From an uncultured Acidobacteriaceae bacterium (GTDB lineage: Bacteria > Acidobacteriota > Terriglobia > Terriglobales > Acidobacteriaceae): 64,000 nucleotides of DNA. The DNA lies in the NCBI GenBank assembly GCA_963800045.1, contig CAWCZN010000003.1, positions 260,730 through 324,729 on the forward strand. Reading direction: 5' to 3'. The notes under the pieces were generated by a model that saw only the letters and a program-made list of their open reading frames with translations, did no database searches and was not told where the DNA came from. Position numbers and translations under genes: made by a program. Positions 5,145 through 49,578 of the stretch are shown piece after piece. Position 1 is the stretch's first letter; every line of letters begins with the position of its first letter.

Positions 5145-5186
5145 CAGGTTACGCGGGCGATGGAACGCACCCTTTTGTGACACCGG

Positions 5187-5357
5187 CTACGAGAGCCGGC
5201 GGATGAGGTAGTTCAGCATCCGGCGGTGTTCGTCCAGCTTGCGCTGCAGCTCCAGACAGCGCCGCAGGCTGGCATTCTGGTTGCGGTCGAGGTCACGCCT
5301 GATTTCAAGCACCAGGTCCTGCTGATCGCGCTTTCGTTCCGATTCTTCGCAGCCCAT
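5187..5357 (-). CDS. Small hypothetical protein (56 aa), predicted coiled-coil
   Basis: Hand translation gives MGCEESERKRDQQDLVLEIRRDLDRNQNASLRRCLELQRKLDEHRRMLNYLIRRLS then TAG. It is too short for the ORF track. It lies between the ABC-2 permease stop and the terminator hairpin. The RBS is weak and I recognise no homology. Confidence 0.3.
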   Translation of the reverse strand: MGCEESERKRDQQDLVLEIRRDLDRNQNASLRRCLELQRKLDEHRRMLNYLIRRLS

Positions 5358-5439: not shown

Positions 5440-7002
5440 TCAGGCGTAGGCGAGCCGAATGCGCCTACCCGCATAAGCGGCCGCGGCGAGCGCCAGGGCG
5501 AGCACAAGAAAAACCATCGGCGTCCTCGACTGCTCCAGTGTGCCAAGGAAGTCCAAGCCTCGGACGTGGTTCGCCACTCCGAAATACCACCAGATCGTAT
5601 AGGTCGCCTCAAAGGTCTTGCTGGTTCCGCTCCACGTGCCAAGCGCGAGCGCCAAGGCAGGAATAAACAACACGGCAGCCGCCCATGCAGTGATCGCTCC
5701 CCAGTCTCCTGCGATCAGAACTCGCATGCCAAGACCCGCGCTAACGACCACCGTGAAGAGGACGCCCGCTGCCAACGTTGCCGTCAGTTGCTTTCGCAGC
5801 GGTTCCGGACTGGAGAACATCAGCGCACCCATACCAAAGCGGTTCTCTCGTGTCCCCAGTTGCGACCATACCAACACCGGCCACAGAAAGGTTGCCGCAA
5901 CCATAGCAGCACGTCCGTTGCCATCGGGCACTGCCGCGGATGCCACGATCAAACCGGCCATCACTGCGTACCACCACCTGCGCTTGCCTTTCAGCATGAG
6001 CCGCAGCTCGGAGATCACGAGGTAGGCGAATCGGAAACGTCGCGCATTCGCTGGCAGGGGCGTCAAGTGGGCGGCCGAGGCGGTCGGCGAGAGATGGGCT
6101 ACTTCCGGCGCAGGCGCAATCTGGCGGTTACCTGATCGCTTCCCGCGGCGTTCATAGGCAGGGTCGAAGCGATGAAAAAACATGGCAGCCATCGCGGTCA
6201 GACCCACCGCAACTGCCAGCCAGAGTAGTCGTCCGAGAAGCAACTGGGCATCCCAATGCAATCCCTGCCACAGCACGGTCTTGCCGGAGGAAGCGGCAAC
6301 GTCGGCGCTGACCAGGCTAAGCGTAAAGCTCCGTTGCCATGCCGGATCGATCGCCCTCACGGTCTGCTCCATGCTGTTCATGAAGACGCCGATACCCGTC
6401 AAGTCTGGTAAGTGGGTTTGGATCGGCGCAGACAGCATTGCCGCCCATACGAAAAAGTAGATGACATTTCCGGCACCGCCCCGCAGGACCGGCGTTGTTT
6501 CGAATAAGACGGCCATCGCGGCTACTACCGCCATGGCCGGCAGCGCTACCAAAAGGAATGGAGTGATGAGCGTTCCAAGGTGGAGAGCGCCTACTCCCTT
6601 GGTGAGCTGCATGGTGATCGCCGCGCCCATGAGCACCAGCACCATGGCCGAGAGCACGGCAAAATTGCTGACCACTTTGGCCGCGGTATAGAAAAAACGC
6701 GTCATGGGGGTGGCAGCTAGAATCCGGCCGACACCTGTCTGCTGGTCGCGGTCAACCGAGTTACGCACTACGTAGAATCCGACCAGCGACAGGAACGTCG
6801 TGGTCACCAGCGTCATGAGCGCGCTTAGCCACGCGGTGTTATACACCCCGCGATAGTCACCGAGCCGCATGATCACCCGACCGCTATAAGCTGAATATCC
6901 GAGATACACCGCAAAGACCAGCGTGACCAGGAAGCTGTAGCGGCGCACTCGCTCCAGGAAATCGGCACGGGCCATCTGAAACAGAACATGTGGCGAGTTC
7001 AC
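5440..7002 (-). CDS. ABC-2-type exporter permease (polytopic membrane protein)
   Basis: 520 aa with many hydrophobic segments (FLVTLVFAVYLGY, AWLSALMTLVTTTFLSLVGFYVV, FLLVALPAMAVVAAMAVLF). Its start overlaps the stop of the upstream ATPase gene (6999-7002), which suggests translational coupling. Confidence 0.75.
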   Translation of the reverse strand: MNSPHVLFQMARADFLERVRRYSFLVTLVFAVYLGYSAYSGRVIMRLGDYRGVYNTAWLSALMTLVTTTFLSLVGFYVVRNSVDRDQQTGVGRILAATPMTRFFYTAAKVVSNFAVLSAMVLVLMGAAITMQLTKGVGALHLGTLITPFLLVALPAMAVVAAMAVLFETTPVLRGGAGNVIYFFVWAAMLSAPIQTHLPDLTGIGVFMNSMEQTVRAIDPAWQRSFTLSLVSADVAASSGKTVLWQGLHWDAQLLLGRLLWLAVAVGLTAMAAMFFHRFDPAYERRGKRSGNRQIAPAPEVAHLSPTASAAHLTPLPANARRFRFAYLVISELRLMLKGKRRWWYAVMAGLIVASAAVPDGNGRAAMVAATFLWPVLVWSQLGTRENRFGMGALMFSSPEPLRKQLTATLAAGVLFTVVVSAGLGMRVLIAGDWGAITAWAAAVLFIPALALALGTWSGTSKTFEATYTIWWYFGVANHVRGLDFLGTLEQSRTPMVFLVLALALAAAAYAGRRIRLAYA

Positions 7003-34692: not shown

Positions 34693-35868
34693 TTGCAAGA
34701 GAGACGGATTGGCGACGTGAGACGGATCGCACTTCACATGTTGATGGGAGACACGGGCAAGTACCTCGGTATTGTGGCCGGAGTAATGTTCGCGTCGTTC
34801 CTGATTATCCAGCAGCTGGCGATGTTCTTTGGCATTCTTCGCCAGACTTATTCGGGCATTACTGCCGTCAACGCTGACCTATGGGTGATGGACCCTAACG
34901 TGAAGAGTATCGACGATTCCAAACCGATGACCGACGGCCAACTTGGCCGCGTGAAGAGTGTGGAGGGCGTGGGGTGGGCAGTCGGGCTCTATAAGGGTTC
35001 CACTTCGGCGCGACTGGAGAACGGTGACACGGCTGGTGTGACGCTGTACGGCTTGGACGATACAACGTTCATCGGCGGCCCCGCTGAGATGGAGGAAGGC
35101 AAGCTCAGCGATCTTCGTCTCAGTGACGCCGTAATCGTGGACTCGATGAGCGCTTTCGATAAGTTGGCTCACTTCGCGCCCGATGGAACGCGCGTTCCGC
35201 TCAAGGTGGGCGACACCCTGGAGTTGAACGATCACCTTGTCCGCGTTGTGGGGCTCTGCAAGGTCGCTCGCGGCTTCCAGTCGCAGGCCGTCGTGTACAC
35301 CACCTACAATCGCGCGTTGGCCATCGCACCGCAGCAGCGCAAGAACCTCTCGTTCATTCTTGCAGCAGCGCAGCCGGGCAGGAACGCAGAGGAAGTCGCA
35401 GCCAAGATCTCACGCATCACCGGACTCGGCGCCTATACCTCGCAGCAGTTCATCGACAATACGCTGCACTACTTCATCACGGAAACGAGTGTCGTCTTGA
35501 ACTTCGGCATGTCGGTAATGGTGTCGTTTCTCATTGGCACCTTGATCGCTGGGCAAACTTTCTACAACTTTACTATGGATAACCTGCGGCACTTCGGAGC
35601 CTTGAAGGCGATGGGCACGAGCAATCGCACTTTGCTGTCGATGATCCTGCTGCAGTCGGCGCTGGTCGGCTTCATCGGATACGGGGTGGGGACGGGGCTG
35701 GCTTGCCTGATGGGCCTCGCCACTCAAGACACGATAATGACATTCACACTGCCATGGTATGTCCTCGCCATCGCGGGTGTGGCAGTTGTCGGAATCTCGG
35801 GTTCCTCCGCCCTGCTCAGTCTGCGCAAGGTCATCAAGCTTGAGCCGGGAGTCGTATTTCGAGGATAG
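34693..35868 (+). CDS. ABC exporter permease, FtsX/DevC-like
   Basis: 391 aa. It has an N-terminal TM segment (KYLGIVAGVMFASFLIIQQLAMFFG), a large periplasmic loop and a C-terminal FtsX-type 3-TM bundle (FGMSVMVSFLIGTLIAGQTFY, LLSMILLQSALVGFIGYGVG, WYVLAIAGVAVVGISGSSALL). An alternative GTG start lies at 34717. Confidence 0.85.
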   Translation: MQERRIGDVRRIALHMLMGDTGKYLGIVAGVMFASFLIIQQLAMFFGILRQTYSGITAVNADLWVMDPNVKSIDDSKPMTDGQLGRVKSVEGVGWAVGLYKGSTSARLENGDTAGVTLYGLDDTTFIGGPAEMEEGKLSDLRLSDAVIVDSMSAFDKLAHFAPDGTRVPLKVGDTLELNDHLVRVVGLCKVARGFQSQAVVYTTYNRALAIAPQQRKNLSFILAAAQPGRNAEEVAAKISRITGLGAYTSQQFIDNTLHYFITETSVVLNFGMSVMVSFLIGTLIAGQTFYNFTMDNLRHFGALKAMGTSNRTLLSMILLQSALVGFIGYGVGTGLACLMGLATQDTIMTFTLPWYVLAIAGVAVVGISGSSALLSLRKVIKLEPGVVFRG

Positions 35869-35870
35869 GT

Positions 35871-36605
35871 ATGCACGCAGAAGCACTTCCCGCGGTGGAA
35901 TGTCAGAACGTACACAAGGTATTCGGCTCGGGCAGCAGCGAAGTGAAAGCCCTGCGCGGCATCAACCTCAAGGTTAAGGACGGCGAGCTGATGATGCTGG
36001 TTGGACCTTCGGGCTGCGGCAAAACGACGCTCATCTCGGTAATTGCCGGGGTATTGGACCCCAGCAACGGAAGCTGCCGTGTCTTCGGCGTCTCCATGCA
36101 GGACATGACCAATGACGAGCGCACGCGATATCGCGGTCGAAGCATCGGTTTTGTATTCCAGCAATTCAACCTGATTCCGTCGCTGACGCTCAGCGAGAAC
36201 GTCGCAATTCCGCTTCTGATCAATGGCGAGGGGTACGGCAAAGCGGTTGAGATGGCATCAGCCGCGCTGGAGCGGGTGGGGCTGGGTGGCCGCGAGGGTG
36301 ATCGGCCGTCGCAGTTGTCGGGCGGACAACAACAGCGAGTCGCCATCGCAAGGGCCATCATTCACTCCCCTCAGCTGATTGTCTGCGACGAGCCTACCAG
36401 CGCATTGGATCACGTCACTGGCGAACACATCGTGCAACTGCTGCAGGAGGTCTCTTCCGGCCACGGGCGCGCGCTCATCATCGTGACCCATGACAGCCGC
36501 ATATTCCACTATGCCGAACGGATCGCGCGCATGGACGACGGCATGATCCAACAGATTTATAACTCCTACCAGGAGATGGCCGAAGCCGAGAGGATTGTGC
36601 AGTGA
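35871..36605 (+). CDS. ABC exporter ATP-binding protein (DevA/MacB/LolD-type)
   Basis: Walker A GPSGCGKTT, FVFQQFNLIPSLT, signature LSGGQQQRVAIARA, Walker B LIVCDEPTSALD, H-loop VTHD. Confidence 0.92.
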   Translation: MHAEALPAVECQNVHKVFGSGSSEVKALRGINLKVKDGELMMLVGPSGCGKTTLISVIAGVLDPSNGSCRVFGVSMQDMTNDERTRYRGRSIGFVFQQFNLIPSLTLSENVAIPLLINGEGYGKAVEMASAALERVGLGGREGDRPSQLSGGQQQRVAIARAIIHSPQLIVCDEPTSALDHVTGEHIVQLLQEVSSGHGRALIIVTHDSRIFHYAERIARMDDGMIQQIYNSYQEMAEAERIVQ

Positions 36606-37702
36606 AACGGAAATGGTTGTTGCCGTCGGTGGCGATTGTCGGAGTGATGTTCGCTCTATTCATGGTGGCCAAGACCACGAAGCCGGCGCCGAAGCCCAAT
36701 ATTACCGTTGAGCCGGCCAAGGCTCCGTTCGCGTCCTACGTGTCGGGGGCTGGCCTCATTGAAGCGTCGACCGAAAACGTCAAGGTGGGTTCCACGAGCG
36801 GAGGGCTGGTCATTCAGGTCTTCGTCAAGGTCGGCGACAAGGTGAACAAGGGACAACCTCTGTTCCAGCTCGACCCTGCCGCCAAACGGGCTGAAATGGC
36901 ACGCTACGAGGCCGAGTTGCAATCGGCGCAGGCAACGCTGGAGAAACTGCGTCAAGGCACGCGCCCCGAAGAACTCGCTATGCAGCAGGAGCAAGTGCAA
37001 GAGAGTGCGGCACAATTACAGGACGCACAAGAGCAGTTGAAGCTGCGCGAGTCGGCCGCAGCCGAGGAGGCTCGTGCTGTCAGTCAGGACGAGTTGAACC
37101 AGGCGCGCAACACGGTGAAGCTGCGGGAAGCGGCGTTGAACTACCAGCAGCGCAAGTTGCAAGAGCTGCAGAACGGGACCTGGGCACCCGAAATCAAGAT
37201 CCAGGAAGCCGAGATTGCTTCCGCGCGTGCGCAGGTCGAGCAGATGCGAACGGAAATGGACAGGCTCACCGTTCGTTCTCCTCTAAAAGGAGAGGTTCTG
37301 CAAGTCAAAATTCACCAGGGCGAATATGCTCCGGCCGCTCAAACCGATGATGCCCTCATGATGGTGGGTAGTAACGACGTTATGAGCATTCGGGTCGACG
37401 TCGACGAGCAAGACGCCTGGCGAGTGAAGACCGGGGAGCCCGCCGTCGCGTATCCGCGTGGACGCAACGATGTGAGCATTCCACTCATGTTTTCCAGGGT
37501 GGAGCCCTACGTCGTTCCCAAGAAGTCGCTGACCGGCGACGCCACCGAACGCGTGGATACCCGAGTGCTGCAGGTCGTCTACGACTTTCAACAACCACCA
37601 GATTTTCGTTTGTACGTCGGCCAGCAGATGGATGTGTTTATCCAAGCCGACCCGCTGGTTGATCCAGGCGCGAAGGTGCCGGCGAAAGGCAGATCCTCAT
37701 GA
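36602..37702 (+). CDS. HlyD/DevB-family periplasmic adaptor (membrane fusion protein)
   Basis: An N-terminal anchor helix and a lipoyl-like motif (VKVGDKVNKGQPLFQLD). A long coiled-coil follows (AEMARYEAELQSAQATLEKLRQG...QEAEIASARAQVEQMRTEMDRL), then a beta-barrel segment (SPLKGEVLQVKIHQGEY). The gene has 4-nt overlaps with both neighbours. Confidence 0.88.
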   Translation: MKRKWLLPSVAIVGVMFALFMVAKTTKPAPKPNITVEPAKAPFASYVSGAGLIEASTENVKVGSTSGGLVIQVFVKVGDKVNKGQPLFQLDPAAKRAEMARYEAELQSAQATLEKLRQGTRPEELAMQQEQVQESAAQLQDAQEQLKLRESAAAEEARAVSQDELNQARNTVKLREAALNYQQRKLQELQNGTWAPEIKIQEAEIASARAQVEQMRTEMDRLTVRSPLKGEVLQVKIHQGEYAPAAQTDDALMMVGSNDVMSIRVDVDEQDAWRVKTGEPAVAYPRGRNDVSIPLMFSRVEPYVVPKKSLTGDATERVDTRVLQVVYDFQQPPDFRLYVGQQMDVFIQADPLVDPGAKVPAKGRSS

Positions 37703-39246
37703 GCAGGACTCTAAGGAGCGCAGCTGCCGGTCTCTGCTTCGCTGCCTTGCTCGCACAGCCTGGGCTCGCCAAAGACAAGGGGCAGCTGTCGGTGAAGGTG
37801 CCGGCTCAGTATCAGGAGGCGCACGCGGCTAACGGGCCGGCGGCAGTTGGGGCATTGGCGGACTGGTGGAAGACCTACAACGATCCTGAACTGCAGTCGC
37901 TCATCGAGCGTGCCATGAAGAGCAACCTCGATGTGCGCCTTGCCAAGGCGAATCTGGCTGAGTCTCGAGCTGCGGCCGGGTACACGCGCAACTCGCTGGA
38001 GCTTCCGACCGTGAACACCGACGCCAGTTACACGAGGTCTAGGACGAGTCTCGATAATCCGCAAATACCCAAGCTGAGCGGCACTGGCACACTGATCCCC
38101 ACGACCTACGGCGTGTACCAAGCATACTTCGATGCGAGTTACGAGATCGATATCTTTGGCGGAGTACGAAACCAGGTGAAGGCTGCTCGTGCCGATGCCG
38201 CAGCCAGCGCCGATGATCTACGCAACACGCTCGTCAGCACCCTGGCCGAAGTCGCGCGCGATTACATCCGGCTCAGACAATATCAGGCGCAGCTTAAGGT
38301 CGCTCAGGACAACGAAGCCTCGCAGAAGGACACACTCAAGATCACACAGGTGCGCTACAAAGCGGGGCTGGTAAGCGACCTTGACGTCGCCAACGCCAGT
38401 GCGAATGTAGCGGAGACTCAATCGTCGATCCCGACGCTGCAGAAGAACATCAGCCAGGAGATTCATGCGATCGCGGTGCTCCTGGGACAGAACCCCGAAG
38501 AACTTGGCAGCGAGCTTTCGCCTGCTGCGGCATTGCCGGAAGCGAAGTCCGAGATCGCGGCAGGTATGCCTTCAGACCTTCTGCGCCGACGTCCGGACAT
38601 CCGGGCGGCCGAAAAGAACGTAGAAGCAGCAAGCGCGCGTGTAGGTGTTCAGGTCGCGAAGTTGTTTCCGACATTCAGCTTATCGGCGCAATATGGAGGG
38701 CAGAGCGGCAGCATCACCAATATCGTCGCCGCTGCAGCCCGCTACTTTAGCATCGGTCCCACGATTGAGTGGGGCATCCTGAACTATCCCAGCCTGCGAA
38801 GCAATATCAGCGTTTACAAGGCAAAGCGTGACGAACAGGTCATCACGTATCAGAAGACCGTGCTCACCGCTTTTCAGGATGTCGAGGATGCGTTGGTGGC
38901 ATATACCCGCGAACGCGAACGTGAGGCGACGCTCGAGGAAGAAGTGGATCAGTATCGTCGCGCGGCCTCCATTTCCATGACCAAGTACACACGCGGATTG
39001 TCAACCTTCCTCGACGTACTGACGGCGCAGCGCTCGCAATACAACGCGGAAGACGCACTCGTTCAAAGCAAGGCTGCTGTACAAGTGGATCTCATTTCCC
39101 TATACAAAGCGCTGGGCGGCGGCTGGGAAGACAACGATCCGGCGGTGGCGAGCCAGAGTTCTGGCGCAGCAGCCGCCGCCAGTAACGCCAACCTGGTTCA
39201 GACCTCCCCTTCCAAGACTACGAGCCAATCACACGGAGTCCAATGA
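37699..39246 (+). CDS. Outer-membrane efflux factor, NodT/TolC family
   Basis: WWKTYNDPELQSLIERAMKSNLDVRLA, PTVNTDASYTRSR, LVSDLDVANASANVAETQSSIP, RRPDIRAAE, LFPTFSLSAQYG and LISLYKALGGGW are typical OEP repeats. Confidence 0.9.
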   Translation: MSRTLRSAAAGLCFAALLAQPGLAKDKGQLSVKVPAQYQEAHAANGPAAVGALADWWKTYNDPELQSLIERAMKSNLDVRLAKANLAESRAAAGYTRNSLELPTVNTDASYTRSRTSLDNPQIPKLSGTGTLIPTTYGVYQAYFDASYEIDIFGGVRNQVKAARADAAASADDLRNTLVSTLAEVARDYIRLRQYQAQLKVAQDNEASQKDTLKITQVRYKAGLVSDLDVANASANVAETQSSIPTLQKNISQEIHAIAVLLGQNPEELGSELSPAAALPEAKSEIAAGMPSDLLRRRPDIRAAEKNVEAASARVGVQVAKLFPTFSLSAQYGGQSGSITNIVAAAARYFSIGPTIEWGILNYPSLRSNISVYKAKRDEQVITYQKTVLTAFQDVEDALVAYTREREREATLEEEVDQYRRAASISMTKYTRGLSTFLDVLTAQRSQYNAEDALVQSKAAVQVDLISLYKALGGGWEDNDPAVASQSSGAAAAASNANLVQTSPSKTTSQSHGVQ

Positions 39247-39290
39247 GATCTATCGAGTATTGCGCAGAAGACGACCTCAGTTCCGAACTC

Positions 39291-40004
39291 CCGATGAAAG
39301 AAAAGATTCTGTTAGTGGAAGACGAGAAAGACCTCAGAACGGTCCTGACGGACCGGCTTGAGGAAGAGGGCTACGATGTGCGCTCCTGCGAAAATGGTAG
39401 CGCCGGCTTCGATGAAGCCTTACGAAAGGACGTCGATCTCATCCTGCTGGACCTGATGGTCTCTGGCAAGACCGGCTTCGATGTCTGCCGCGATCTAAGG
39501 CAAGCAGGACTCACGACTCCGATACTTATGCTGAGCGCACGTGGCCACCTGATCGACAGAGTCCTGGGACTCAAGCTTGGTGCGGACGATTACGTTGTGA
39601 AGCCCTTTGAAATGCTCGAATTGATAACTCGGATTGAAGTGCTATTGCGCCGCAGTTCGCAGAATATGTCTCATGAAGGAGTCTACCGATTTGGCTCCGT
39701 TACGATTGACCTTCCTGGGACCGCCGTCTTCCGCGATGGGCAGCAAGTCCCGCTCTCGGCACGGGAATTTGAGTTACTGCGATACCTGGTTGAACATCAA
39801 GGCTTCACGATATCTCGCGCCACACTTCTCGAAGAAGTCTGGGGATACAAAGCCAGCACTTACACGCGCACGGTTGATGCTCACATCTTCACTCTACGTC
39901 AGAAGATTGAGGACAATCCCCGCAGACCCACCTTAATCGTGACGGTGACCGGACTGGGCTACAAGCTCGAAATTAATCCCACTGTGAAAGCTGCCATTCG
40001 CTAA
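39291..40004 (+). CDS. OmpR/PhoB-family response regulator
   Basis: MKEKILLVEDEKDLRTVL, DLILLDLMVSGKTGFD and PILMLSAR form the receiver. SAREFELLRYLVEHQGFTISRATLLEEVWGY...VDAHIFTLRQKIE...VTVTGLGYKL is the winged helix. The track start at 39243 is an alternative. Confidence 0.88.
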   Translation, partial: PMKEKILLVEDEKDLRTVLTDRLEEEGYDVRSCENGSAGFDEALRKDVDLILLDLMVSGKTGFDVCRDLRQAGLTTPILMLSARGHLIDRVLGLKLGADDYVVKPFEMLELITRIEVLLRRSSQNMSHEGVYRFGSVTIDLPGTAVFRDGQQVPLSAREFELLRYLVEHQGFTISRATLLEEVWGYKASTYTRTVDAHIFTLRQKIEDNPRRPTLIVTVTGLGYKLEINPTVKAAIR

Positions 40005-40402
40005 TGATGAAACCACTAAACTCTAGCCAAACTAGCGGCCTTCCTCTAATTATGTGTGTGGATGATGATCCGGCCGTGCTTGAGGTACTGGGGGAGTATT
40101 TGACTCAATCTGGATTTCACGTTATATGCGAGCCTAACCCCCTTCGCGCCAAACAACTGCTTGCCGTCACGGAGTTTGACGCCGTGATACTTGATTACGA
40201 GATGCCAGACTGCAACGGCCTGGAATTGTCAAAAGCTATTCGTCGGAAAAAACCAGATCTGCCGATATTAATGTTTTCGGGTACCCTACTGCCGCCGGAT
40301 GCGCTTACCTGGGTATCTTCATTTGTCTCTAAGAACCAAGGTGCTCTCGGCCTTGTCAGCGCTCTCAAGCGTGAGCTGAGCCGGACTTCGGTCCGCCGGT
40401 AA
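40004..40402 (+). CDS. Stand-alone receiver (CheY-like) response regulator
   Basis: LIMCVDDDPAVLEVL, DAVILDYEMPDCNGLEL and PILMFSG. 132 aa with no output domain. Its start is immediately adjacent to the stop of the preceding RR gene. Confidence 0.8.
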   Translation: MMKPLNSSQTSGLPLIMCVDDDPAVLEVLGEYLTQSGFHVICEPNPLRAKQLLAVTEFDAVILDYEMPDCNGLELSKAIRRKKPDLPILMFSGTLLPPDALTWVSSFVSKNQGALGLVSALKRELSRTSVRR

Positions 40403-40534: not shown

Positions 40535-41896
40535 TCAATGCAAATTCAGGCAACCCGCTCCTGAATCGCCACCAGTAACGCTGAAGCGCATTGACCGAAA
40601 ATCGAAACTATAGCTTGCAAAGAGGCCAAGCACATTCTGGCCGATGTTTCCGTAGAATTCGTCTGTCGAGTTGCTATGCTGGGTCAGAATATCCACCGAC
40701 TGCGGCCTCACACAGTGTCCGTCAACACTTGCCACGAGGTCGACTACTTCATACGCCATAGCGACGACGCTGCCACCGGCGCCTAAAATCTCCAATGTGC
40801 GCAACTGGTCAGCATCTATGCTGGTTTCACCCTCACCCAAAAACGCCCTGGAGAGAATGGTTCCGATCGCCCCCGTATCGACTGTGAATAGCCGATCTCC
40901 GTGCCCGAGATCGGCGATCACCACCGGCGTAAACTTCTCCAGAAACATATTGTGTGACGTGGAATTGCCCGGCCTCGTCACAAGTGAATCAGCAAAATGT
41001 ACGCTCGCGCCTTGAACGACGCTTACTTCGCCCAATGCCATAAGAACCGGCAGCCCCAAGCACCCTTCGATTCGGTAATTCATCGATGGGAAGGTTAAAT
41101 CGGAATCCTCAACCACCAGTACCGCCACGTTCCGGATCAGTGCGGGTCCTAGCTGAATCTGGGGAATGATAGCGACCCGGACTGGGACAGGATGTCCGGA
41201 GGATGCCGCCGCATCGGCGGTTCTGGTGGAAACCGCCAGACCCAGCCGGTCAGCAACTGATCTGGATACAACGGACAGATTCGCGCCCGTATCGAGGATC
41301 CAGCTTCCGGTATAAGTCCCCACATTGACCGGAACCCGAAGTAGGCCAAGAGAATCGTTGCTGCCGCTTAGGGCGAAGGGGCCACTACTCTGAATGGTCT
41401 GGGGTGGTGCTCCGTCCAGCAACGCCCAGCGTGCTGCCTCGTGGCGCGCATTACAGGTAGATTCTGTATGGTTTGCCTCCGAGACGAGGGCTGCCTGCAG
41501 GTACGTGTTTGCGGCCTTACCATAACGGAAGCCTCTTGCATAATTGTCGGCAAGCGTACATAGTGCATATTCTGCATGCCCGGGATTGCTAATCAGAAGG
41601 CCTGAAATAAGCGGCTGAAGAAGGAGTGTCGATCGGTCCACCAGGTTTATTCGATTGGCCAACACTCCTTCGAAGTACGTGCGATCTTGCGCTGTGAGTC
41701 GAGCCTCTCGGGCCGTGAGTTCAAGTTCAAACTTGTCGTATTGCTTTCGTGCAAGCAACAGATCGAGATCTGGAGACTTAGCTGGCGGCTGCTCTGCAGA
41801 CAACGGACAGCTTGCGCAGATTAAGATCGCAATTACACCACCCGAGACGATACATCGTATGATTGCATTCAGTCGCGAAATAAAGATTTTTGCCAT
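40535..41896 (-). CDS. Exported protein with two retropepsin-like aspartic protease domains
   Basis: The N-terminus has a hydrophobic signal/anchor (GGVIAILICASCPLSA). There are two D-T-G active-site motifs: GSWILDTGANLSVVS and RLFTVDTGAIGTILS. A helical N-domain precedes them. Confidence 0.72.
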   Translation of the reverse strand: MAKIFISRLNAIIRCIVSGGVIAILICASCPLSAEQPPAKSPDLDLLLARKQYDKFELELTAREARLTAQDRTYFEGVLANRINLVDRSTLLLQPLISGLLISNPGHAEYALCTLADNYARGFRYGKAANTYLQAALVSEANHTESTCNARHEAARWALLDGAPPQTIQSSGPFALSGSNDSLGLLRVPVNVGTYTGSWILDTGANLSVVSRSVADRLGLAVSTRTADAAASSGHPVPVRVAIIPQIQLGPALIRNVAVLVVEDSDLTFPSMNYRIEGCLGLPVLMALGEVSVVQGASVHFADSLVTRPGNSTSHNMFLEKFTPVVIADLGHGDRLFTVDTGAIGTILSRAFLGEGETSIDADQLRTLEILGAGGSVVAMAYEVVDLVASVDGHCVRPQSVDILTQHSNSTDEFYGNIGQNVLGLFASYSFDFRSMRFSVTGGDSGAGCLNLH

Positions 41897-42386: not shown

Positions 42387-43784
42387 CTACCACTCGAACG
42401 ATATCGTCGTGTCGCGATCCCAGTGCTCCCACAGAAACGCATCGTGACGGTCGTCGGCGATGAGGCGCAGGGCGTAGCGCACCTGGTCTTCGTACAATTC
42501 GCAGAAAGCGCCGGTACGGTCCATGCCGCCATTCATCTCGTAGGCTTCGGCAGGGCAGGGAGAGCCGCAAAAGTGGCGTACGGCGCAGCGGCGACACGGA
42601 TCGATATCTTCGACCTTGCGTCCGGTGACCAGCGCGAAGGGCGGCGTCGCCAGGATGTCGTCGATCGAATCGCGGAACAGGTTGCCGCCTTTGAAACTCG
42701 GCAGGCCGAGAAATTCGCTGCACGGGAAAACGTCGCCATTGGCCGAGAGTGCAAAAAAGCAACGTCCGCCGCCGCACGGGGAGATGTCACACATCAGGCG
42801 GCGAGCCTGTGGCGCCAAGATCGAGATCAGGATGTTCGCGAAGTTCGCGACGACCATGCGGCGTCCCGTCTCGCGATAAAGCTCCTCGGTACGATCCAAC
42901 GCCGCGAGGTAAAAGCGGCTGATGTCTTCGTCCTTCGGCTTGATGTCGCGCGCGCCCTGGCGGGTGCAGCGCACCGGATTCAACATGCAGGTGGTCACGC
43001 CGCGTTCGTGAAAGAAGTCCACTGTCGGGATCAGCTTGTGCACGTTCTCGCTAGTGATGGTGCAGATCACGCTGTAGTTAGGGTAGCCTCGTAGCTTCTC
43101 CATCGCAGCCACGACCTTGTCGTAGATGCTGTGCCTGTCCCAGGTCTTGCGCGTGCGCGTAACGATTTCATCAAGCGATGAATCGAGGGACAAACCGACA
43201 GCGACACCCAGCTCCATCAGCACGTCGTATTGCGCGTCGGTCAGCACCGTGCCGTTGGTCTGGATGCCGAAGCGGAAGTCCTCGCCGTAGCGTTCGAAGG
43301 CAGGTAGCATTGCGTCCCAGTTCAAGGTTGGTTCGGCACCATGGAAGACAATTTGCGGTCGGAAGCCTCCGGGTAGGTGAGCGCAAAAATACTGTTTCAG
43401 AATCTCTAGCGCCGACAACACATGTTCGACCGGCATGTGAATGCCATCCTTGCGCATGGACTCCGGCAGGTAGCAGTACGAGCAGTTCAGATTGCAGCGC
43501 TCGGTAGGATTGAAGTATACGGCAGAGGGGCTGACGTTGAAGCGGAAGCGATGCATCTCTTCGGCGAATGCGGCGGCTTTTTCGCGATACTGATCGAGGA
43601 ACGGTCCCGGCGTGAGCGCTTCTCCGAGTTTGTCTTTCTGAATCAGAGCCCAGAAGGCGGTGTCGGGGTCGACGACGCCGATGTAATTGTCGTGGCCGAT
43701 GTCGATGGGTTGCAGGGTGCCGCCGATGCCGCTGTTGAAGTGCAGGCCGCGCGATGACGCTTGGGATTTCGTTGCGATATTCAT
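42387..43784 (-). CDS. Radical SAM enzyme with a C-terminal SPASM (twin auxiliary 4Fe-4S) domain; putative peptide maturase
   Basis: FNPTERCNLNCSYCYLP (CX3CX2C) begins at about residue 97. The SPASM signature is CDISPCGGGRCFFALSANGDVFPC ... CRRCAVRHFCGSPCPAEAY ... AFCELY. The preferred start is ATG 43784 (MNIATK) with GAGGA 8 nt upstream; the track start is 43799. Confidence 0.9.
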   Translation of the reverse strand: MNIATKSQASSRGLHFNSGIGGTLQPIDIGHDNYIGVVDPDTAFWALIQKDKLGEALTPGPFLDQYREKAAAFAEEMHRFRFNVSPSAVYFNPTERCNLNCSYCYLPESMRKDGIHMPVEHVLSALEILKQYFCAHLPGGFRPQIVFHGAEPTLNWDAMLPAFERYGEDFRFGIQTNGTVLTDAQYDVLMELGVAVGLSLDSSLDEIVTRTRKTWDRHSIYDKVVAAMEKLRGYPNYSVICTITSENVHKLIPTVDFFHERGVTTCMLNPVRCTRQGARDIKPKDEDISRFYLAALDRTEELYRETGRRMVVANFANILISILAPQARRLMCDISPCGGGRCFFALSANGDVFPCSEFLGLPSFKGGNLFRDSIDDILATPPFALVTGRKVEDIDPCRRCAVRHFCGSPCPAEAYEMNGGMDRTGAFCELYEDQVRYALRLIADDRHDAFLWEHWDRDTTISFEW

Positions 43785-43861
43785 TGGGCAAATCCTCATT
43801 CAAGATCTCGACGCGGCGGATGATGAGAACCATCCGCCGCCATGCAATGCCGTTCCGGCGT

Positions 43862-43969
43862 TTACTTCTTCGAATCCGTCATGACGTAATGAGAAAGACC
43901 AGTACCGTTGGCGTTGCAGCTCTTGCGAGTCGCAATGATGGGACGCTGGGCGTTTTTCTTCTTCTTCAC
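43862..43969 (-). CDS. Unannotated 35-aa peptide, candidate RiPP precursor
   Basis: Hand translation base by base gives GTG-MKKKKNAQRPIIATRKSCNANGTGLSHYVMTDSKK-TAA. AAAGGAGGTGATTCC lies immediately upstream; AGGAGGTGA is a full anti-SD complement with 6-7 nt spacing. The ORF ends 77 nt before the preferred rSAM start (43784). It is too short for the ORF track. Confidence 0.55.
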   Translation of the reverse strand: MKKKKNAQRPIIATRKSCNANGTGLSHYVMTDSKK

Positions 43970-44834
43970 GGAATCACCTCCTTTCGCAGCAAAGTGAAAT
44001 GAAGCAGCAGAGTCGGTCGAGCGTACGCACAAGGTTCAGGCCCGATGCGAATGCACGAAGGCGACGCACGGCGCTACGCGATTGCTTGTCTCAGGAGGGG
44101 GTGTTGTTGCCCCGGAGAAACGAAAACCCACATCCCCGTTTCCGCGCGGAGATCATCGGTTGAGACTTCGGTCAGGTCTTCTGGCTCGTGAGTGTCGAGA
44201 GCGGGGATCTCGGCGGCTGGCTTCCACCTTCCCCGGCATTTTCTGACGAGTGGTACTACGGAAGCTGCCTTCTCACTTACAGCGGCGGGACCGCTCCGGT
44301 GTTCAACCGGATTCCCTGTTGCTCTTTGGCAGAGCAACCCGAAGTCGTTTGAGATTGTCGAGCAGAGTGTAAGAGAGGATTGCTGAGTGGCGCTATGACG
44401 TGCATCACAGCGCCACGTTCAAACGGAGACGTCCAGGGCCACCGCCGCATTGGGAAAGGCCCCATCGGCACATGCAGTGAGCGAATAAATAACATTGTAG
44501 GTCCAACCTCCCTGACCGTTAAGGTCTGGTGGCCTCCTAGGGGAGGCGCCGCCGAGCCAAGGCAGTTTGCCGGTCGCGGTTGCACCCACTAGGGAGTGCA
44601 GACGAGGTGGGGATCACTCATAAGTAAGAAAGGCCGTCCAAACGGACGGCGTTAGGGGAAGCAGGCCAGAGGACTTCCGCTCGCCCGGGTTGCTTAAAGC
44701 ACACCTGAAAGAACTCGGCCATTGGTTACAAAAGCAATATCTTGCTTGTGAAGTTTTCACACCGACCTTGATGCCCCCTAACAACGTCTTAACAGTCCGC
44801 CATCGACGCAGCCCGTCCAACAACCAGGTTACCC

Positions 44835-46682
44835 ATGGTTGGACTGCAACGTCCCTCGACTACTCGCGCTGTTCTTTCATTGGGCAGTCCATTCCGGCGT
44901 TGGTTGCTGTTTGGTGCGATCGTCGTGAGTTGCCTCACAGCGTCAGCTGCTGACAATGCCCATACACTTTATGAGAAGGGTCGCGATGCAGAGGCCCGCC
45001 AGGACTACATCGCCGCCTACAACTACTACCATGCAGCCTATGAACAGTCGCCCAAAGACATAACTTACCGAGTCTCGTTTCAGCGAGCACGGTTTTACGC
45101 GGCGACTGCCTACGTCCATCATGGAGAGAACGACCAGCAGGCTGGACAGCTTCTCCAGGCTTTGGCGGACTACCAACGAGCGTTGTCTGTTGATCCTTCC
45201 AGCTTCATCGCGCAGCAGCTTCTAAACAGTGTTACCCAGGAACTAAGAAAAGAGGGCGAGAACAAAGACAGAACAACGAATGCGACAGAAGTTCCCGGCG
45301 AGACGCTTGAGGGGCCTGTCGAATTGAAAGCCATCGTCGCCACGCCCATCACTCTCAGTATGACGGAGGACGCCAAGGTCATTTTTCAGAGCCTGGGGAA
45401 ACTGGCTGGGATAAATGTCTTGTTCGATGCCGATTTCGCGCCACGCAGAGTCCATGTCGATCTCAACGGTGTCACGTTGCAGGAAGCTCTTGAAGTAGCG
45501 GCGATGCAATCTCGAGCATTCTGGCGCCCAGTGACGCGGAACACGATCTTCGTGGCCTCCGACACTCCGGCGAAACGCAAGGAACTGGAGCAAAACGTTG
45601 TTCGCACCTTCTACCTGTCGAGTCTGACCCAGCCCAACGAGCTTCAGGATGTGGTGAACCTCCTGCGAACACTCCTGGATACCCAGCGCCTTCAACAGTT
45701 TCCGGCTCAGCATGCCATTGTGATTAGAGGTACACCCGCGCAGATCTTGATGGCGAACGAGCTCATCAAAGATCTCGACAAGGCTCAGCCGGAAGTGGTC
45801 GTCGATGTCGTCATCATGCAGGTTTCGCGCGATACGCTAAAAGACGTCGGTATTAATCCCCCAACCAGCGTCAGTGCCAATCTCCAGAACAGTTCCACCT
45901 CTACGACCAGTAGTTCCAGTAGCAGCACCACAAGCTCAAGCTCGAGTACCAGCAGCACGACGACCGGCAGCATAAGTTTGAATACCCTCGGGAATCTTAA
46001 CGCCACAAACTTTCAACTTACGATTTCGGAAGCAACCGCCAGCTTCCTCTTCACCGATAGCAACAGCAAGATTTTGCAGCAACCGCAGCTTCGCTCGATC
46101 GATGGACAGAAAGCCAGCCTCAAGCTAGGTGAACGCGTACCCGTCGCAACCGGATCCTACACATCCGGCACCACATCGGCCAGTGCCTTGGTGAACACTC
46201 AGTTCAACTACATCGATGTTGGAGTGAATCTGGATATCACTCCTCTGGTGCTCAACGTTGACGATGTCATGTTGAAGATGTCGATTGACATATCAGCCGT
46301 CGACTCCTATCAGAATATCGGGGGCATTAACGAGCCGGTAATCGGACAACGCAAGATCGAACACGAAGTACAGCTCAAGAATGGTGAGGTGAGCCTGATC
46401 GGCGGACTATTGGAAGAGGATGAGATTCGCAATCTGAGCGGCTATCCTGGTCTCTCAAAGATACCCTTCCTGCGATACCTGTTTTCGGAGAATAAGAAGG
46501 AGTTGAAAGACAATGAACTGGTCTTCGTCGTGATCCCACATGTAGTCCGAATTCGTGAGATCGATAAGGCCAACACGCGCACGATCGACGTGGGCACTGC
46601 CACCACGATTCAGGTTCACAGTGGCTCACAAGGCGCCACTCAGGCGCAGCAGGGCGGCGACCATCCGCAGGATCAGCGCTGA
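44835..46682 (+). CDS. Secretin-family outer membrane channel (type II/III secretion system protein) with an N-terminal TPR-like region and a Ser/Thr-rich linker
   Basis: The C-terminal secretin core is PVIGQRKIEHEVQLKNGEVSLIGGLLEEDEIRNLSGYPGLSKIPFLRYLFS...ELVFVVIPHVV. Secretin N-domains include NGVTLQEALEVAAMQSRAFW and HAIVIRGTPAQILMANELIKDLD. The signal-like N-terminus is RRWLLFGAIVVSCLTASA. Confidence 0.85.
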   Translation: MVGLQRPSTTRAVLSLGSPFRRWLLFGAIVVSCLTASAADNAHTLYEKGRDAEARQDYIAAYNYYHAAYEQSPKDITYRVSFQRARFYAATAYVHHGENDQQAGQLLQALADYQRALSVDPSSFIAQQLLNSVTQELRKEGENKDRTTNATEVPGETLEGPVELKAIVATPITLSMTEDAKVIFQSLGKLAGINVLFDADFAPRRVHVDLNGVTLQEALEVAAMQSRAFWRPVTRNTIFVASDTPAKRKELEQNVVRTFYLSSLTQPNELQDVVNLLRTLLDTQRLQQFPAQHAIVIRGTPAQILMANELIKDLDKAQPEVVVDVVIMQVSRDTLKDVGINPPTSVSANLQNSSTSTTSSSSSSTTSSSSSTSSTTTGSISLNTLGNLNATNFQLTISEATASFLFTDSNSKILQQPQLRSIDGQKASLKLGERVPVATGSYTSGTTSASALVNTQFNYIDVGVNLDITPLVLNVDDVMLKMSIDISAVDSYQNIGGINEPVIGQRKIEHEVQLKNGEVSLIGGLLEEDEIRNLSGYPGLSKIPFLRYLFSENKKELKDNELVFVVIPHVVRIREIDKANTRTIDVGTATTIQVHSGSQGATQAQQGGDHPQDQR

Positions 46683-46738: not shown

Positions 46739-47425
46739 TTACGCAGCAAACTTATAGCCTAAGCCAGGCACTGTGAGGATCAGGCCAGGGTTCTTCGGAT
46801 CATCCTCGATTTTGTGACGAAGGCTGAAGATATGAACGTCCAGGGTGCGAGTGTAGGTATCTGAATTGTAGCCCCATACATCTCGAAGAATGTCGCCGCG
46901 AGGTATCGTGACCCCCCTGTGCTGTAGCAGATAGCGCAAGAGTTGGAACTCTCGCGCGGAAAGAGGGACCAGATCGCCCTTCCGGAAGACAGCTGTCCCG
47001 CGAAGGTCAATTCTCACTGAACCGAACTGCTGCGTCATGTCGCCTTCACTGCAACTGCCAGCGGCACGACGTAAGAGCACCTCGATTCTGGTCGTGAGTT
47101 CCAGCATCTCAAAGGGCTTGACCAGATAGTCATCCGCTCCGAGTTTCAATCCTAGAATTTTATCGACCAGCTGGTCCCGTGCGGTCAGCATGAGAATCGG
47201 CGTTGTTCTTCCGGCCCTGCGGAGGTCACGGCAAACGTCGAATCCGTTCTTCCCGGGCATTGTCACATCAAGCACGATCAAGTCGTAGGTGCGGCTCACT
47301 GCTTCTTGATAGCCGCTGTTTCCATTGTCGGAAGCGCGGACTTTATAGCCTTCACCCTCCAATCGATCGGTTAAAGTGGTTCTAAGGTCCCTCTCGTCGT
47401 CAATTACCAATATGCTCCCGTTCAT
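46739..47425 (-). CDS. OmpR/PhoB-family response regulator
   Basis: ILVIDDERDLRTTL, DLIVLDVTMPGKNGFD, PILMLTAR, SAREFQLLRYLLQHRGVTIPRGDILRDVWGY and LTVPGLGYKF. It is very similar to the RR at 39291..40004. Confidence 0.9.
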   Translation of the reverse strand: MNGSILVIDDERDLRTTLTDRLEGEGYKVRASDNGNSGYQEAVSRTYDLIVLDVTMPGKNGFDVCRDLRRAGRTTPILMLTARDQLVDKILGLKLGADDYLVKPFEMLELTTRIEVLLRRAAGSCSEGDMTQQFGSVRIDLRGTAVFRKGDLVPLSAREFQLLRYLLQHRGVTIPRGDILRDVWGYNSDTYTRTLDVHIFSLRHKIEDDPKNPGLILTVPGLGYKFAA

Positions 47426-49263
47426 AATATTTCACTACCCGAAGCCATGAGGCTTTCATTTTGTATGCCTGCTTCATCGAGTGCTGGCAGTTGAATAGTG
47501 ACAGACGTTCCCTCGCCTCGTTGACTCACAAGGCTGATGTGTCCACCTGCTTCCTCTACGATACTTTTGGCCAGGGCAAGGCCTAGACCCGTTCCGTGGA
47601 TCGCTGAACCCGCCAGGTGTGCGCCTCGATAGAAAGGTTCGAAAACATGCTTGATGTCCTCAGGGCCGATACCCAGTCCGTGATCTTCTACAATAATGTT
47701 TAGTTCAGGCTTATCTTCAACATATCGCCTTGAGACGCTGACCCTAACCCACAGAGACTCGCCGCTGTACTTGATGGCGTTACCGATGACATTCTGCATG
47801 CACTGCGCCAGAGCTACGGGATCCGCCAAGACCATAGGAACATCTGGCTCATACTTACGAATCACGTATACATCTCTGTTGTTCAGGTTCGTAATGGCCT
47901 CTTCGATGAGGTCCGGAACCGATATTGGTTCGCGAGACAGCTGGATTCGGCGCTGATGACTTGCCGTGAACTGCAAGACCTGTTCAATCAGCATCATCAG
48001 CTGCTTTGCCTGGCGGTGGAGTAGTTCTCCGTACTGCGGAGCGCGACTATTCCGGTGAACAAGGCCGTCTTTCAAGTTCTCCGATGCCGCAAGGATGACC
48101 GAAACTGGCGTCCGCAGCTCATGAGTGACCCCAGCAACAAACCTCATCTGCATTTCCACCAGACTGCGTGCACGATGCGTCGCGACCAGTAGTACAGCCA
48201 AAGTCCCCGCCAATACGAAGAGTATTCCGAAGCTGACTGCCAGATTGCGTCTCCGCAGACGCGCAACGGCGGCCTCGAGCGATCCTCTCCGGTGCTCCGC
48301 CACCAGTTTCCAGTCGTCACGATCGAATCGAGTATCGGGCCCATCCGTGCGCAGCCAGTCGTCGAACTCGCCATCCGTACCGATCAGCTGTGGCAGTTGC
48401 AATTGAAGCGGGAAAAGCACGGGCTCACTACCCGCGTTCATACCTGGGGGTCCTCCCAGGCTCAAGGTGGCATCAGCGGCAGGAGGCAGCTTCGCAGGGA
48501 ACCCCGGTCGGGAGGAATAGATCACGGAAGGCAGGGTGGGCTCACCTCCGAGCACGGCAACATCGAAATCGAGAAGCCCGGAAACCGCGAATTGCTTCTG
48601 TACTAGCGCGGGAAACAGCTGTTCTCGAATGTTCTGAAGATCCAGGACAACGATCAGGAAGGACAGCCCAGAATGACGGCTCACATTATTCGGTTCAGTA
48701 ACGGGAGAGATCAGCGCGGGCACCGCCTCGTCGAGGATCCACATATTGCCACGGGGCGGCAGTGGCCAGGCACCTCGGACGCTCGGTATTCGTGGGTCAG
48801 GACTACGAGGTGAACCCGTGCGTAGTGCCGGGACTAGTGTCCGCCAGCGATTCAGACTTGCCGGCCACTTTACGTCTTCAAACTTGCCTGACTCGGGATT
48901 AAACTTCAACACCCGCGCGCTCTTCTCTCCGACGTCGAGCGCGACATAAACTGTGCTCACTAGGTTCCGACGTGAGGAGGTTTGCAGCCAGACCAGCAGT
49001 TGCTCGATGTAGTTCTTCGAATGTGCGATATCACGTGTGCCACCCGGAGGCCGAAGGCTAAAACCAATCTCGCCCAGGTCCCGCTCCAGATCCTGCCGAA
49101 AGCCTGCCATGGAACGCTGTAACTCGGCATGCATTCTGGCGCTCGCCGCCCGGCTGATCTCCTGAGTCCAGCGATACTGGAGAAGAGCCAAGAAGACTAG
49201 CATCACGGAAAGCACTGCTACTGCGGCAAGAAAAACCGCGTTTTGTGTGGTGGGCCGCTCCAT
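47422..49263 (-). CDS. Sensor histidine kinase with a large periplasmic/extracytoplasmic domain
   Basis: H-box VTHELRTPVSVILAASENL, N-box NVIGNAIKYSG, G-boxes VEDHGLGIGPED and GTGLGLALAKSIV. The two TM segments are AVFLAAVAVLSVMLVFLALL and VSFGILFVLAGTLAVLLV. The ATG at 49263 (MERPTT) is preferred over 49305. Confidence 0.87.
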   Translation of the reverse strand: MERPTTQNAVFLAAVAVLSVMLVFLALLQYRWTQEISRAASARMHAELQRSMAGFRQDLERDLGEIGFSLRPPGGTRDIAHSKNYIEQLLVWLQTSSRRNLVSTVYVALDVGEKSARVLKFNPESGKFEDVKWPASLNRWRTLVPALRTGSPRSPDPRIPSVRGAWPLPPRGNMWILDEAVPALISPVTEPNNVSRHSGLSFLIVVLDLQNIREQLFPALVQKQFAVSGLLDFDVAVLGGEPTLPSVIYSSRPGFPAKLPPAADATLSLGGPPGMNAGSEPVLFPLQLQLPQLIGTDGEFDDWLRTDGPDTRFDRDDWKLVAEHRRGSLEAAVARLRRRNLAVSFGILFVLAGTLAVLLVATHRARSLVEMQMRFVAGVTHELRTPVSVILAASENLKDGLVHRNSRAPQYGELLHRQAKQLMMLIEQVLQFTASHQRRIQLSREPISVPDLIEEAITNLNNRDVYVIRKYEPDVPMVLADPVALAQCMQNVIGNAIKYSGESLWVRVSVSRRYVEDKPELNIIVEDHGLGIGPEDIKHVFEPFYRGAHLAGSAIHGTGLGLALAKSIVEEAGGHISLVSQRGEGTSVTIQLPALDEAGIQNESLMASGSEIL

Positions 49264-49578
49264 ATCAACTGCCGACAGTGAGCAATGCCACGCACCGGAG
49301 CACATTGCCCACGTCCCGCGCGACGCCCCCTAGGGTCGAGTGGCACAGTTGCTCTAGAGCGGCCGTAGCAAAGAAGGATCAGTGCCGATCCGCGCATCCG
49401 AGTAGCGGTGCGTCATAGTGTCGGCTTCTCATCGTTCTTCGTTCTGCTGTGTATTCCGCATACACGGATGAAAGATTCCACAAATCATGTTAAGTCTGTG
49501 TAAAGTACGTTTCCTCCGGAAAGAAAAAGGCGACCGAAAGTCCCGGTCGCCTTTCTAACCAACCGCTTGAGGGGTGAG

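Follow-up and report, generated by a model that had tools for sequence, protein, structure and literature searches.

The minus strand of the 64-kb window analysed here (64,000 nt of contig CAWCZN010000003.1 from an uncultured Acidobacteriaceae bacterium; positions below are those of the window) carries a compact module made up of a cobalamin (B12) riboswitch, a gene for a 35-aa precursor peptide (cbpA) and a gene for a radical S-adenosylmethionine (SAM) enzyme (cbpB). The precursor gene (43862..43969, stop codon included) reads GTG AAG AAG ... TAA, encodes the peptide MKKKKNAQRPIIATRKSCNANGTGLSHYVMTDSKK and matches the precursor model TIGR04164. Its Shine-Dalgarno sequence, AAGGAGGTGA, was found by direct reading at 43974..43983 of the same strand, with 4 nt between its end and the GTG and 7 nt between the end of the GGAGG core and the GTG; the sequence directly 5' of the open reading frame (ORF) is AAAGGAGGTGATTCC. 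This 10-mer has a single copy in the window, both strands counted, where 0.07 would be expected by chance. The choice of GTG as the start codon is supported by a close relative (L051 in the survey of related loci described below), which has ATG at the same position, after the same KGGD-coding Shine-Dalgarno region. The GTG-started ORF and its outstanding anti-Shine-Dalgarno match had been picked out in an initial annotation of this DNA, made without database searches, and both are present as described there. That annotation also held that the peptide was unannotated; indeed, its exact sequence was not found in a collection of 15 billion proteins, and on a public contig with an identical enzyme the annotation shows no gene in the interval from the secretin gene to that of the radical SAM protein.

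The enzyme gene (42387..43784, minus strand; recognised by TIGR04163, Pfam, alignments and an AlphaFold2 model) begins 77 nt after the cbpA stop codon and encodes a 465-aa radical SAM/SPASM peptide maturase, CbpB. The sequence GAGGA precedes its ATG at 43784 by 8 nt; with another possible ATG, at 43799, the protein would have 470 aa, and the aligned homologues are 465-471 aa long and collinear from the 465-aa start. The CX3CX2C motif (CNLNCSYC, at C97, C101 and C104) is invariant in 80 sequences, and the Radical_SAM domain PF04055 was detected with 76.3 bits against a threshold of 29.5. The SPASM region scored 31.9 bits against 21.5 for PF13186 and 51.3 against 27 for TIGR04085, and its eight invariant cysteines, C332-x4-C337-x17-C355 ... 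C397-x2-C400-x5-C406-x3-C410-x17-C428, conform to the pattern of the SPASM subfamily, with two predicted auxiliary 4Fe-4S clusters. Three more cysteines, C241, C266 and C273, located in the radical SAM barrel, are conserved across the same 80 sequences. The distance of 77 nt, the length of the enzyme and both sets of motifs agree with the initial annotation.

Both genes can be assigned to families that have already been defined by curators. CbpB scored 684.2 bits with TIGR04163 ('peptide-modifying radical SAM enzyme CbpB'; curated cut-off 375), the whole model (1-428 of 428) aligning with residues 29-456, and CbpA scored 47.4 bits with TIGR04164 ('modified peptide precursor CbpA'; cut-off 35), positions 2-25 of 25 aligning with residues 12-35. 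TIGR04163 (rSAM_cobopep) and TIGR04164 (cobo_pep) are NCBIfam/TIGRFAMs equivalog models, and since both genes exceed the curated cut-offs, the pair is, by model score, a member of the existing CbpA/CbpB family and not a new class of peptides that are ribosomally synthesised and modified post-translationally (RiPPs). The proposal of a candidate new RiPP family made in the initial annotation was therefore abandoned; homologues already bear the name CbpB. The element 'cobo' might stand for 'cobalamin operon', which would mean that the curators had seen the genomic context. Other maturase models gave about 50-120 bits with CbpB against cut-offs of 300-850 (PapB, anaerobic sulfatase-maturating enzyme (anSME), SCIFF, HxsB, AmcB and DynA), the PapB, anSME and SCIFF-maturase models being the next-best NCBIfam matches, and the distinction drawn earlier between this peptide and the SCIFF, PqqA and MftA precursors thus holds. 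A database search returned thousands of CbpB relatives, several of them named CbpB by NCBI; the best 120 show 61-100% identity, come from many phyla and, with two outliers, have lengths of 465-502 aa.

The riboswitch, which is absent from the initial annotation, is the most informative clue to the function of the pair. The aptamer (44154..44357, minus strand) matches the cobalamin riboswitch family RF00174 over the full model (1-189) with a score of 95.9 bits (gathering score 31.5, E = 1e-23); it is the sole Rfam match in the whole window and ends 185 nt before the start of cbpA, on the same strand. Directly 3' of it, a terminator scan and folding revealed a terminator-like expression platform (44116..44153, minus), in which the stem ATCTCCGCGCGGAAACGGGGAT is followed by GTGGGTTTTCGTTTCT. 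In the Acidobacterial relatives L001-L003 both the stem and the T-run are conserved, with one loop substitution, and the stem presumably serves to switch transcription off. About 140 nt upstream of the aptamer there is a weak promoter-like -35/-10 pair, TTAACG-17 nt-TACAAT (44494..44522, minus), suggested by a consensus scan with 9 of 12 matches. Folding of the whole leader gave no alternative structure masking the Shine-Dalgarno sequence beyond what shuffled sequence gives (z = 0.77).

Another hairpin lies between the two genes. It is GC-rich, with a 12-bp stem of the GGCGGCGGATGG/CCATCCGCCGCC type (43813..43840, minus), was found by folding and is not followed by a T-run; the 96-nt stretch that contains it folds with -34 kcal/mol (z = -2.2). 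About 15 other loci whose spacers are long have hairpins of different sequence at this site, and in many other loci cbpA and cbpB abut or overlap. The hairpin may act, for example, in partial attenuation or in the protection of the cbpA message. A match to RF01867 (the Caulobacter small RNA CC2171) at 43813..43993 of the minus strand, with 23.8 bits against a gathering score of 75, covers the Shine-Dalgarno sequence, the ORF and the hairpin of cbpA; it rests on the Shine-Dalgarno sequence and the hairpin and is probably due to chance. The consensus of RF01867 itself opens with the Shine-Dalgarno-like GAAAGGAGGUGA.

At least 440 species genomes hold a relative of this pair. For comparison, 80 loci were taken from representative genomes of Acidobacteriota, Verrucomicrobiota, Planctomycetota, Chloroflexota/Dehalococcoidia, deltaproteobacterial lineages (Desulfobacterota/Myxococcota), Nitrospirota, Omnitrophota, Brocadiia and other phyla, making 81 loci with the window. 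By motif search, cbpA was found directly upstream of cbpB and on the same strand in 76 of the 81 loci, representing about ten phyla. In the other five the contig starts no more than 176 nt from the enzyme gene, and one of these keeps the C-terminal half of CbpA. Judged by this gene order, the peptide and the enzyme always travel together, and the window shows no difference from any homologous locus examined, either in the order of the genes or in the peptide core. Conservation of the small ORF before orthologous radical SAM genes was the check proposed with the initial annotation, and its view that a short peptide forms a pair with a radical SAM/SPASM enzyme is supported by both the linkage and the TIGR models. 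That CbpA is post-translationally modified by CbpB is what the linkage and the family annotation suggest.

The peptide core aligns across the loci without insertions or deletions as [VI]-[IV]-A-x-R-K-x-C-x-A-x-G-T-G-L-S-H-Y-[IV]-[LM] and is followed by a short basic tail, while the N-terminal part ahead of it is Lys-rich and variable, its length ranging from 2 to about 25 residues. There is a single copy of cbpA per locus. The 20-codon core occurs in 75 distinct versions at the nucleotide level, in which R5, C8, G12, G14, L15 and H17 are invariant and all their synonymous codons are used; the column entropies at codon positions 1, 2 and 3 are 0.58, 0.37 and 1.47 bits, so that the third positions are 3-4 times more variable than the first and second. 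Since these residues are fixed while all their codons occur, the pattern indicates a truly coding ORF that is translated and under strong purifying selection at the protein level. As the ORF follows a riboswitch and belongs to the 5' part of the cbpB transcript, it might be taken for a mere regulatory leader peptide or a chance ORF that is no substrate at all. This can hardly be correct, however, given the conservation of the amino acids across phyla with all synonymous codons in use, the match to the curated precursor model above its cut-off, the strong Shine-Dalgarno sequence that belongs to the ORF itself and the presence of the ORF in riboswitch-less loci inside cob operons.

The link to B12 extends well beyond the window. 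Riboswitches in the related loci were sought with Rfam and then with an nhmmer profile built from the Rfam matches; this procedure replaced a simple B12-box regular expression, which had found a riboswitch in 33 loci only and missed many real ones. With Rfam, riboswitches were detected in 22 related loci (immediately upstream of cbpA in 21, downstream of cbpB in one), and with the profile in 54 loci, directly upstream of cbpA in 53. Thus, 53 of 76 related loci share the arrangement of the window, with a homologous riboswitch before cbpA. A hairpin (-10 to -41 kcal/mol) with a T-run stands between aptamer and cbpA in 51 of the 53 riboswitch-bearing loci, which indicates a transcription-termination switch. 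Loci without a riboswitch of their own mostly lie among genes that NCBIfam models identify as CobQ, CbiB, CobT, CobB/CbiA, CobS, CobA, CobU, CbiM and BtuF-like; genes of BtuC-like permeases, ATP-binding cassette (ABC) ATPases and TonB-dependent receptors also occur near cbpAB. Over the 81 loci, a riboswitch alone was found in 40, cob/btu genes alone in 21, both in 14 and neither in 6, three of which are truncated, so that 75 loci are linked to B12 by a riboswitch or by cob, cbi or btu neighbours. The flanks of cbpAB differ even among Acidobacterial relatives of about 80% identity, where the riboswitch, cbpA and cbpB stay together, and from this persistence we infer that the three form an autonomous unit. 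CbpB itself has no detectable B12-binding domain (PF02310), only the Radical_SAM and SPASM domains being found; thus, it is not a cobalamin-dependent (class B) radical SAM enzyme, and its link with B12 would be regulatory and contextual and would not come from a cofactor requirement.

Several loci depart from this arrangement. Two cobalamin riboswitches stand back to back in L011, L017, L021, L040 and L049, one of them facing cbpAB and the other a divergent cobT, cobS or cobQ gene, or cbiM in L040; in L021 the two lie at 5170-5305 (minus) and 5521-5674 (plus). Several Planctomycete loci have such an additional, opposite-strand riboswitch that faces cobT, cobS or cobQ. In L015 (Solibacteraceae) the riboswitch (5794-5984, 126 bits) is located downstream of cbpB instead of upstream of cbpA and precedes the next genes, which encode CobU and a TonB-dependent receptor. 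In L008 (positions 889-1599, Planctomycetota) about 580 nt separate cbpA from cbpB, as compared with 0-100 nt in the other loci. In L024, L028, L035, L043 and L071 (metagenome-assembled genomes of Omnitrophota, Nitrospirae and Planctomycetia) cbpA or cbpB adjoins a gene for a protein of about 316 aa (e.g. L043, 3977-4927), found beside BtuF/BtuC-like genes. The asparagine-synthase C-terminal (ATP-pyrophosphatase) domain makes up the whole of this protein, which resembles lasso-peptide cyclases in this respect and could be a second tailoring enzyme of one subfamily, acting in amidation or lactam formation. In L071 (1708-2808) no stop codon stands between the AsnB-like ORF and cbpA, which share one frame, whereas the close relative L035 has a stop codon there; this might be either a natural fusion of enzyme and precursor or an assembly error.

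A short peptide adjoining a radical SAM/SPASM enzyme, and unlike the SCIFF, PqqA and MftA precursors, could also be taken as a sign of an unrecognised RiPP family with a secreted bioactive product, for instance an antimicrobial. We regard this as very improbable, since the family is already curated as CbpA/CbpB and so named in NCBI records, the enzyme is conserved across about ten phyla with more than 55-60% identity, only one precursor, with an invariant core, is found per locus, and expression appears to be under the control of a B12 riboswitch. Moreover, no conserved protease, exporter or immunity gene was found among the recurrent neighbour clusters. Nor does CbpA look like a precursor with a cleavable leader: the leader region of CbpA is variable, and no protease or exporter cluster recurs among the neighbours. 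The profile of the pair fits a housekeeping or cofactor-like system rather than a variable antibiotic. In this it resembles the systems for pyrroloquinoline quinone (PQQ; PqqA/PqqE/PqqD) and mycofactocin (MftA/MftC/MftB), which likewise combine a single-copy, very short, conserved precursor with a conserved radical SAM/SPASM enzyme, are spread across phyla and serve primary metabolism, not antibiosis. Those systems, however, need PqqB/C/F or MftD/E/F to excise a small-molecule cofactor, have other peptide motifs and no riboswitch, whereas cbpAB consists of two genes with no conserved partner.

Among characterised enzymes, the closest relative of CbpB is the SCIFF maturase CteB, both in the sequence search (E = 3e-31) and in the comparison of folds (E = 7e-20, with 455-472 columns aligned and the N-terminal region included), anSME being next with Foldseek alignments of 381-394 columns. 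The folds were compared with an AlphaFold2 model of good overall confidence (predicted local distance difference test (pLDDT) 85, predicted template modelling score 0.87). The SCIFF (CteA-CteB) and PapA-PapB systems share with CbpAB the radical SAM and SPASM domains, an N-terminal extension and a Cys-containing substrate peptide encoded next door, but CbpB falls far short of their models (105.6 bits against 425 for TIGR03974 and 121.8 against 340 for PapB, NF047865), CbpA has a single Cys instead of the six or more of SCIFF/PapA-type precursors, and B12 riboswitch control and cob context are found with cbpAB only. Besides, CteB has Lys opposite C332 of CbpB in the alignment, which makes C332 an extra SPASM cysteine.

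The N-terminal domain of CbpB (residues 1 to about 90) occupies the position where CteB carries its RiPP recognition element (RRE). Residues 9-50 are as strongly conserved as the active site (SSRGLHFNTGNG..LQP.DIGH..Y.GLVDPDTAFWAL), and the model places strands at 25-27, 34-39 and 44-49 and helices at 50-56 and 61-82, thus three strands and two helices where the winged helix of a PqqD-like RRE has three of each; residues 1-20 are a low-confidence part of the model, although the first 50 residues are as invariant as the catalytic core. The domain modelled alone (AlphaFold2, pLDDT 73) gave no significant Foldseek match, the best having E = 1, and the lasso-peptide RRE TbiB1 appeared among the matches at E = 1.1 with a probability of 0.16; a Pfam search of the N-terminal 96 residues at E up to 10 returned only noise. 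From its position in the modelled fold, an RRE-like role of this domain is plausible.

As for the reaction, an intramolecular thioether cross-link from the invariant Cys8 to a carbon in GTGLSHY is tentatively ranked as the most likely, because the nearest characterised relatives are the thioether-forming CteB/SCIFF and PapB maturases. An aromatic cross-link (cyclophane) at His17 or Tyr18 is an unlikely alternative, oxidation of the cysteine in the manner of anSME would be more surprising still, and epimerisation or another modification accounts for what is left. The anSME-like reading deserves closer attention. It holds that CbpB oxidises the cysteine of C-x-A-x-G to formylglycine or another product and, in its extreme form, that CbpB is a sulfatase maturase to which the peptide is irrelevant. 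Indeed, anSME is the second-best relative in both structure and sequence, has the same fold and acts on a single Cys or Ser; the eight SPASM cysteines of CbpB are spaced as in the published structure of anSME; and the sulfatase motif C-x-[PA]-x-R is similar to C-x-A-x in its first four positions. Nevertheless, CbpB scores only 106.9 bits with the anSME model TIGR03942 (cut-off 349.45), and anSME lacks the N-terminal domain that CbpB has. The substrate of anSME is a folded sulfatase with C/S-x-P/A-x-R, whereas CbpA has C-x-A-x-G with an invariant Gly, not Arg, at position +4. Neither a sulfatase nor any other protein substrate recurs among the neighbours, a check that had also been proposed with the initial annotation, and the strict linkage of peptide and enzyme excludes the version in which the peptide is irrelevant. 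Altogether, an anSME-like role of CbpB seems improbable.

We consider it probable that the module, in the order riboswitch, cbpA, cbpB, provides a modified peptide that is repressed by B12, is located inside the cell and works in the supply of cobamide or cobalt. At an ample level of adenosylcobalamin or of a different cobamide, the aptamer would be bound, the terminator would form and cbpAB would remain untranscribed; when B12 is scarce, transcription would read through into the operon. The strong Shine-Dalgarno sequence and the hairpin after cbpA would then yield more peptide than enzyme. CbpB would bind the core IIA-x-RK-x-C-x-A-x-GTGLSHY, probably with the help of its conserved N-terminal domain, and would modify it by means of the 5'-deoxyadenosyl radical and its two auxiliary Fe-S clusters. 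Since neither a leader protease nor an exporter is conserved and the core of some precursors is preceded by only 2-3 residues, the small basic peptide probably functions as a whole and within the cell.

A role in B12 supply in a general sense is rather likely; CbpA might, for example, serve as a carrier or ligand of corrinoids or of cobalt, or assist in one of the cob or btu steps. A more specific version, in which the product is secreted as a cobalt or corrinoid scavenger ('cobaltophore') and re-imported through a TonB-dependent receptor and BtuFCD-type systems, might draw on the predicted expression of the cassette at low B12 only, on the eight loci where cbpAB lies directly beside genes of BtuF-like and BtuC-like proteins, ABC ATPases and TonB-dependent receptors, and on the invariant Cys and His as plausible metal ligands. 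The logic would recall methanobactin, a modified peptide whose production is switched according to the supply of the metal or cofactor that it helps to acquire, and some cbpAB loci, like those of methanobactin, adjoin genes of a TonB-dependent receptor and binding proteins. The analogy is one of logic only, as methanobactin is made by MbnBC, not by a radical SAM enzyme, and has dedicated export and uptake genes that are not conserved at cbpAB. In addition, no conserved exporter, signal peptide or leader protease accompanies CbpA, most loci, the window included, have no transporter nearby, and one Cys with one His would hardly suffice for high-affinity binding if the modification contributes no further ligands. 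Secretion as a scavenger is therefore unlikely.

Alternatively, the peptide or the enzyme might replace or bypass a B12-dependent function, as MetE does for MetH. Regulons switched off by B12 riboswitches classically include B12-independent isozymes, and in 40 of the 81 loci the riboswitch is the only link to B12. On the other hand, the pair lies within or adjacent to cob, cbi or btu genes in 35 loci, which is the pattern of supply genes, and we know of no B12-dependent reaction that a 30-aa peptide could replace. Such a B12-sparing role appears improbable, and an intracellular peptide in the service of cobamide or cobalt supply is preferred.

Some observations weigh against this interpretation or parts of it. 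Three complete-looking loci (L008, L032 and L036) have neither a riboswitch nor cob genes in view. Because the regulon switched off by B12 also holds B12-independent substitutes, a supply role does not necessarily follow from riboswitch control. The terminator of the window is weak (about -12 kcal/mol), and the whole leader folds no better than shuffled sequence, as the z-score given above indicates. With regard to the chemistry, CbpB keeps all eight SPASM cysteines in anSME spacing. In the anSME structure this pattern reportedly ligates both auxiliary clusters fully, while in that of CteB one cluster site is said to be left open for the substrate cysteine; full ligation would somewhat weaken the case for a thioether. 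Tyr18 is replaced by Phe in four loci, so its hydroxyl is not essential. Finally, no experimental paper on the modification of CbpA was found in the literature searched.

The other genes around the module in the window do not appear to belong to it. Downstream of cbpB, the minus strand at 40535..41896 encodes a protein of 453 aa whose N-terminus resembles a signal peptide and which contains an aspartyl protease domain of the retropepsin-like type (PF13650, 65 bits). It was considered as a leader protease and rejected: the gene lies at a distance of 490 nt, possesses a promoter-like site of its own and occurs in none of the 80 other loci, not even in the relatives of 80% identity. On the other side of the module lies a secretin gene (44835..46682, Pfam match). 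Translations read by eye at 34693..39246 (plus), 39243..40402 (plus) and 46739..49305 (minus) point to an ABC efflux set (permease, ATPase, membrane-fusion protein and outer-membrane factor), three response regulators and a histidine kinase. None of these efflux, regulator, kinase and secretin genes is conserved beside cbpAB elsewhere. In the Omnitrophota metagenome-assembled genome that carries L037, a 6S RNA (62 bits) and two tRNA genes (3145-3682) lie about 1.1 kb downstream of where the cbpB match ends.

The search of the literature returned no publication on the chemistry or role of CbpA/CbpB, nor are they mentioned in the overviews of radical SAM/SPASM enzymes consulted. In that literature the family exists as a bioinformatic definition, curated and biochemically unstudied. 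According to one review, many of the radical SAM/SPASM families defined by Haft and Basu are still uncharacterised (PMC9062424). As a RiPP class, the pair has little value as a discovery, and its worth is that of a pointer to an unstudied and very widespread peptide system linked to B12. The window also illustrates a gap in annotation, a 35-aa precursor having been left uncalled in this genome even though the TIGR04164 model exists. The carriers among Chloroflexota include the corrinoid-salvaging Dehalococcoidia. The question raised is what a peptide modified by a radical SAM enzyme does in B12 supply, and with two small genes it is directly testable. The chances seem about even that the modified CbpA is a widely conserved, uncharacterised component of the cobamide economy, a ligand, carrier or helper that would be switched on by B12 scarcity through the riboswitch. 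If so, it would be, as far as the literature searched shows, the first RiPP-type factor in the acquisition or biosynthesis of B12.

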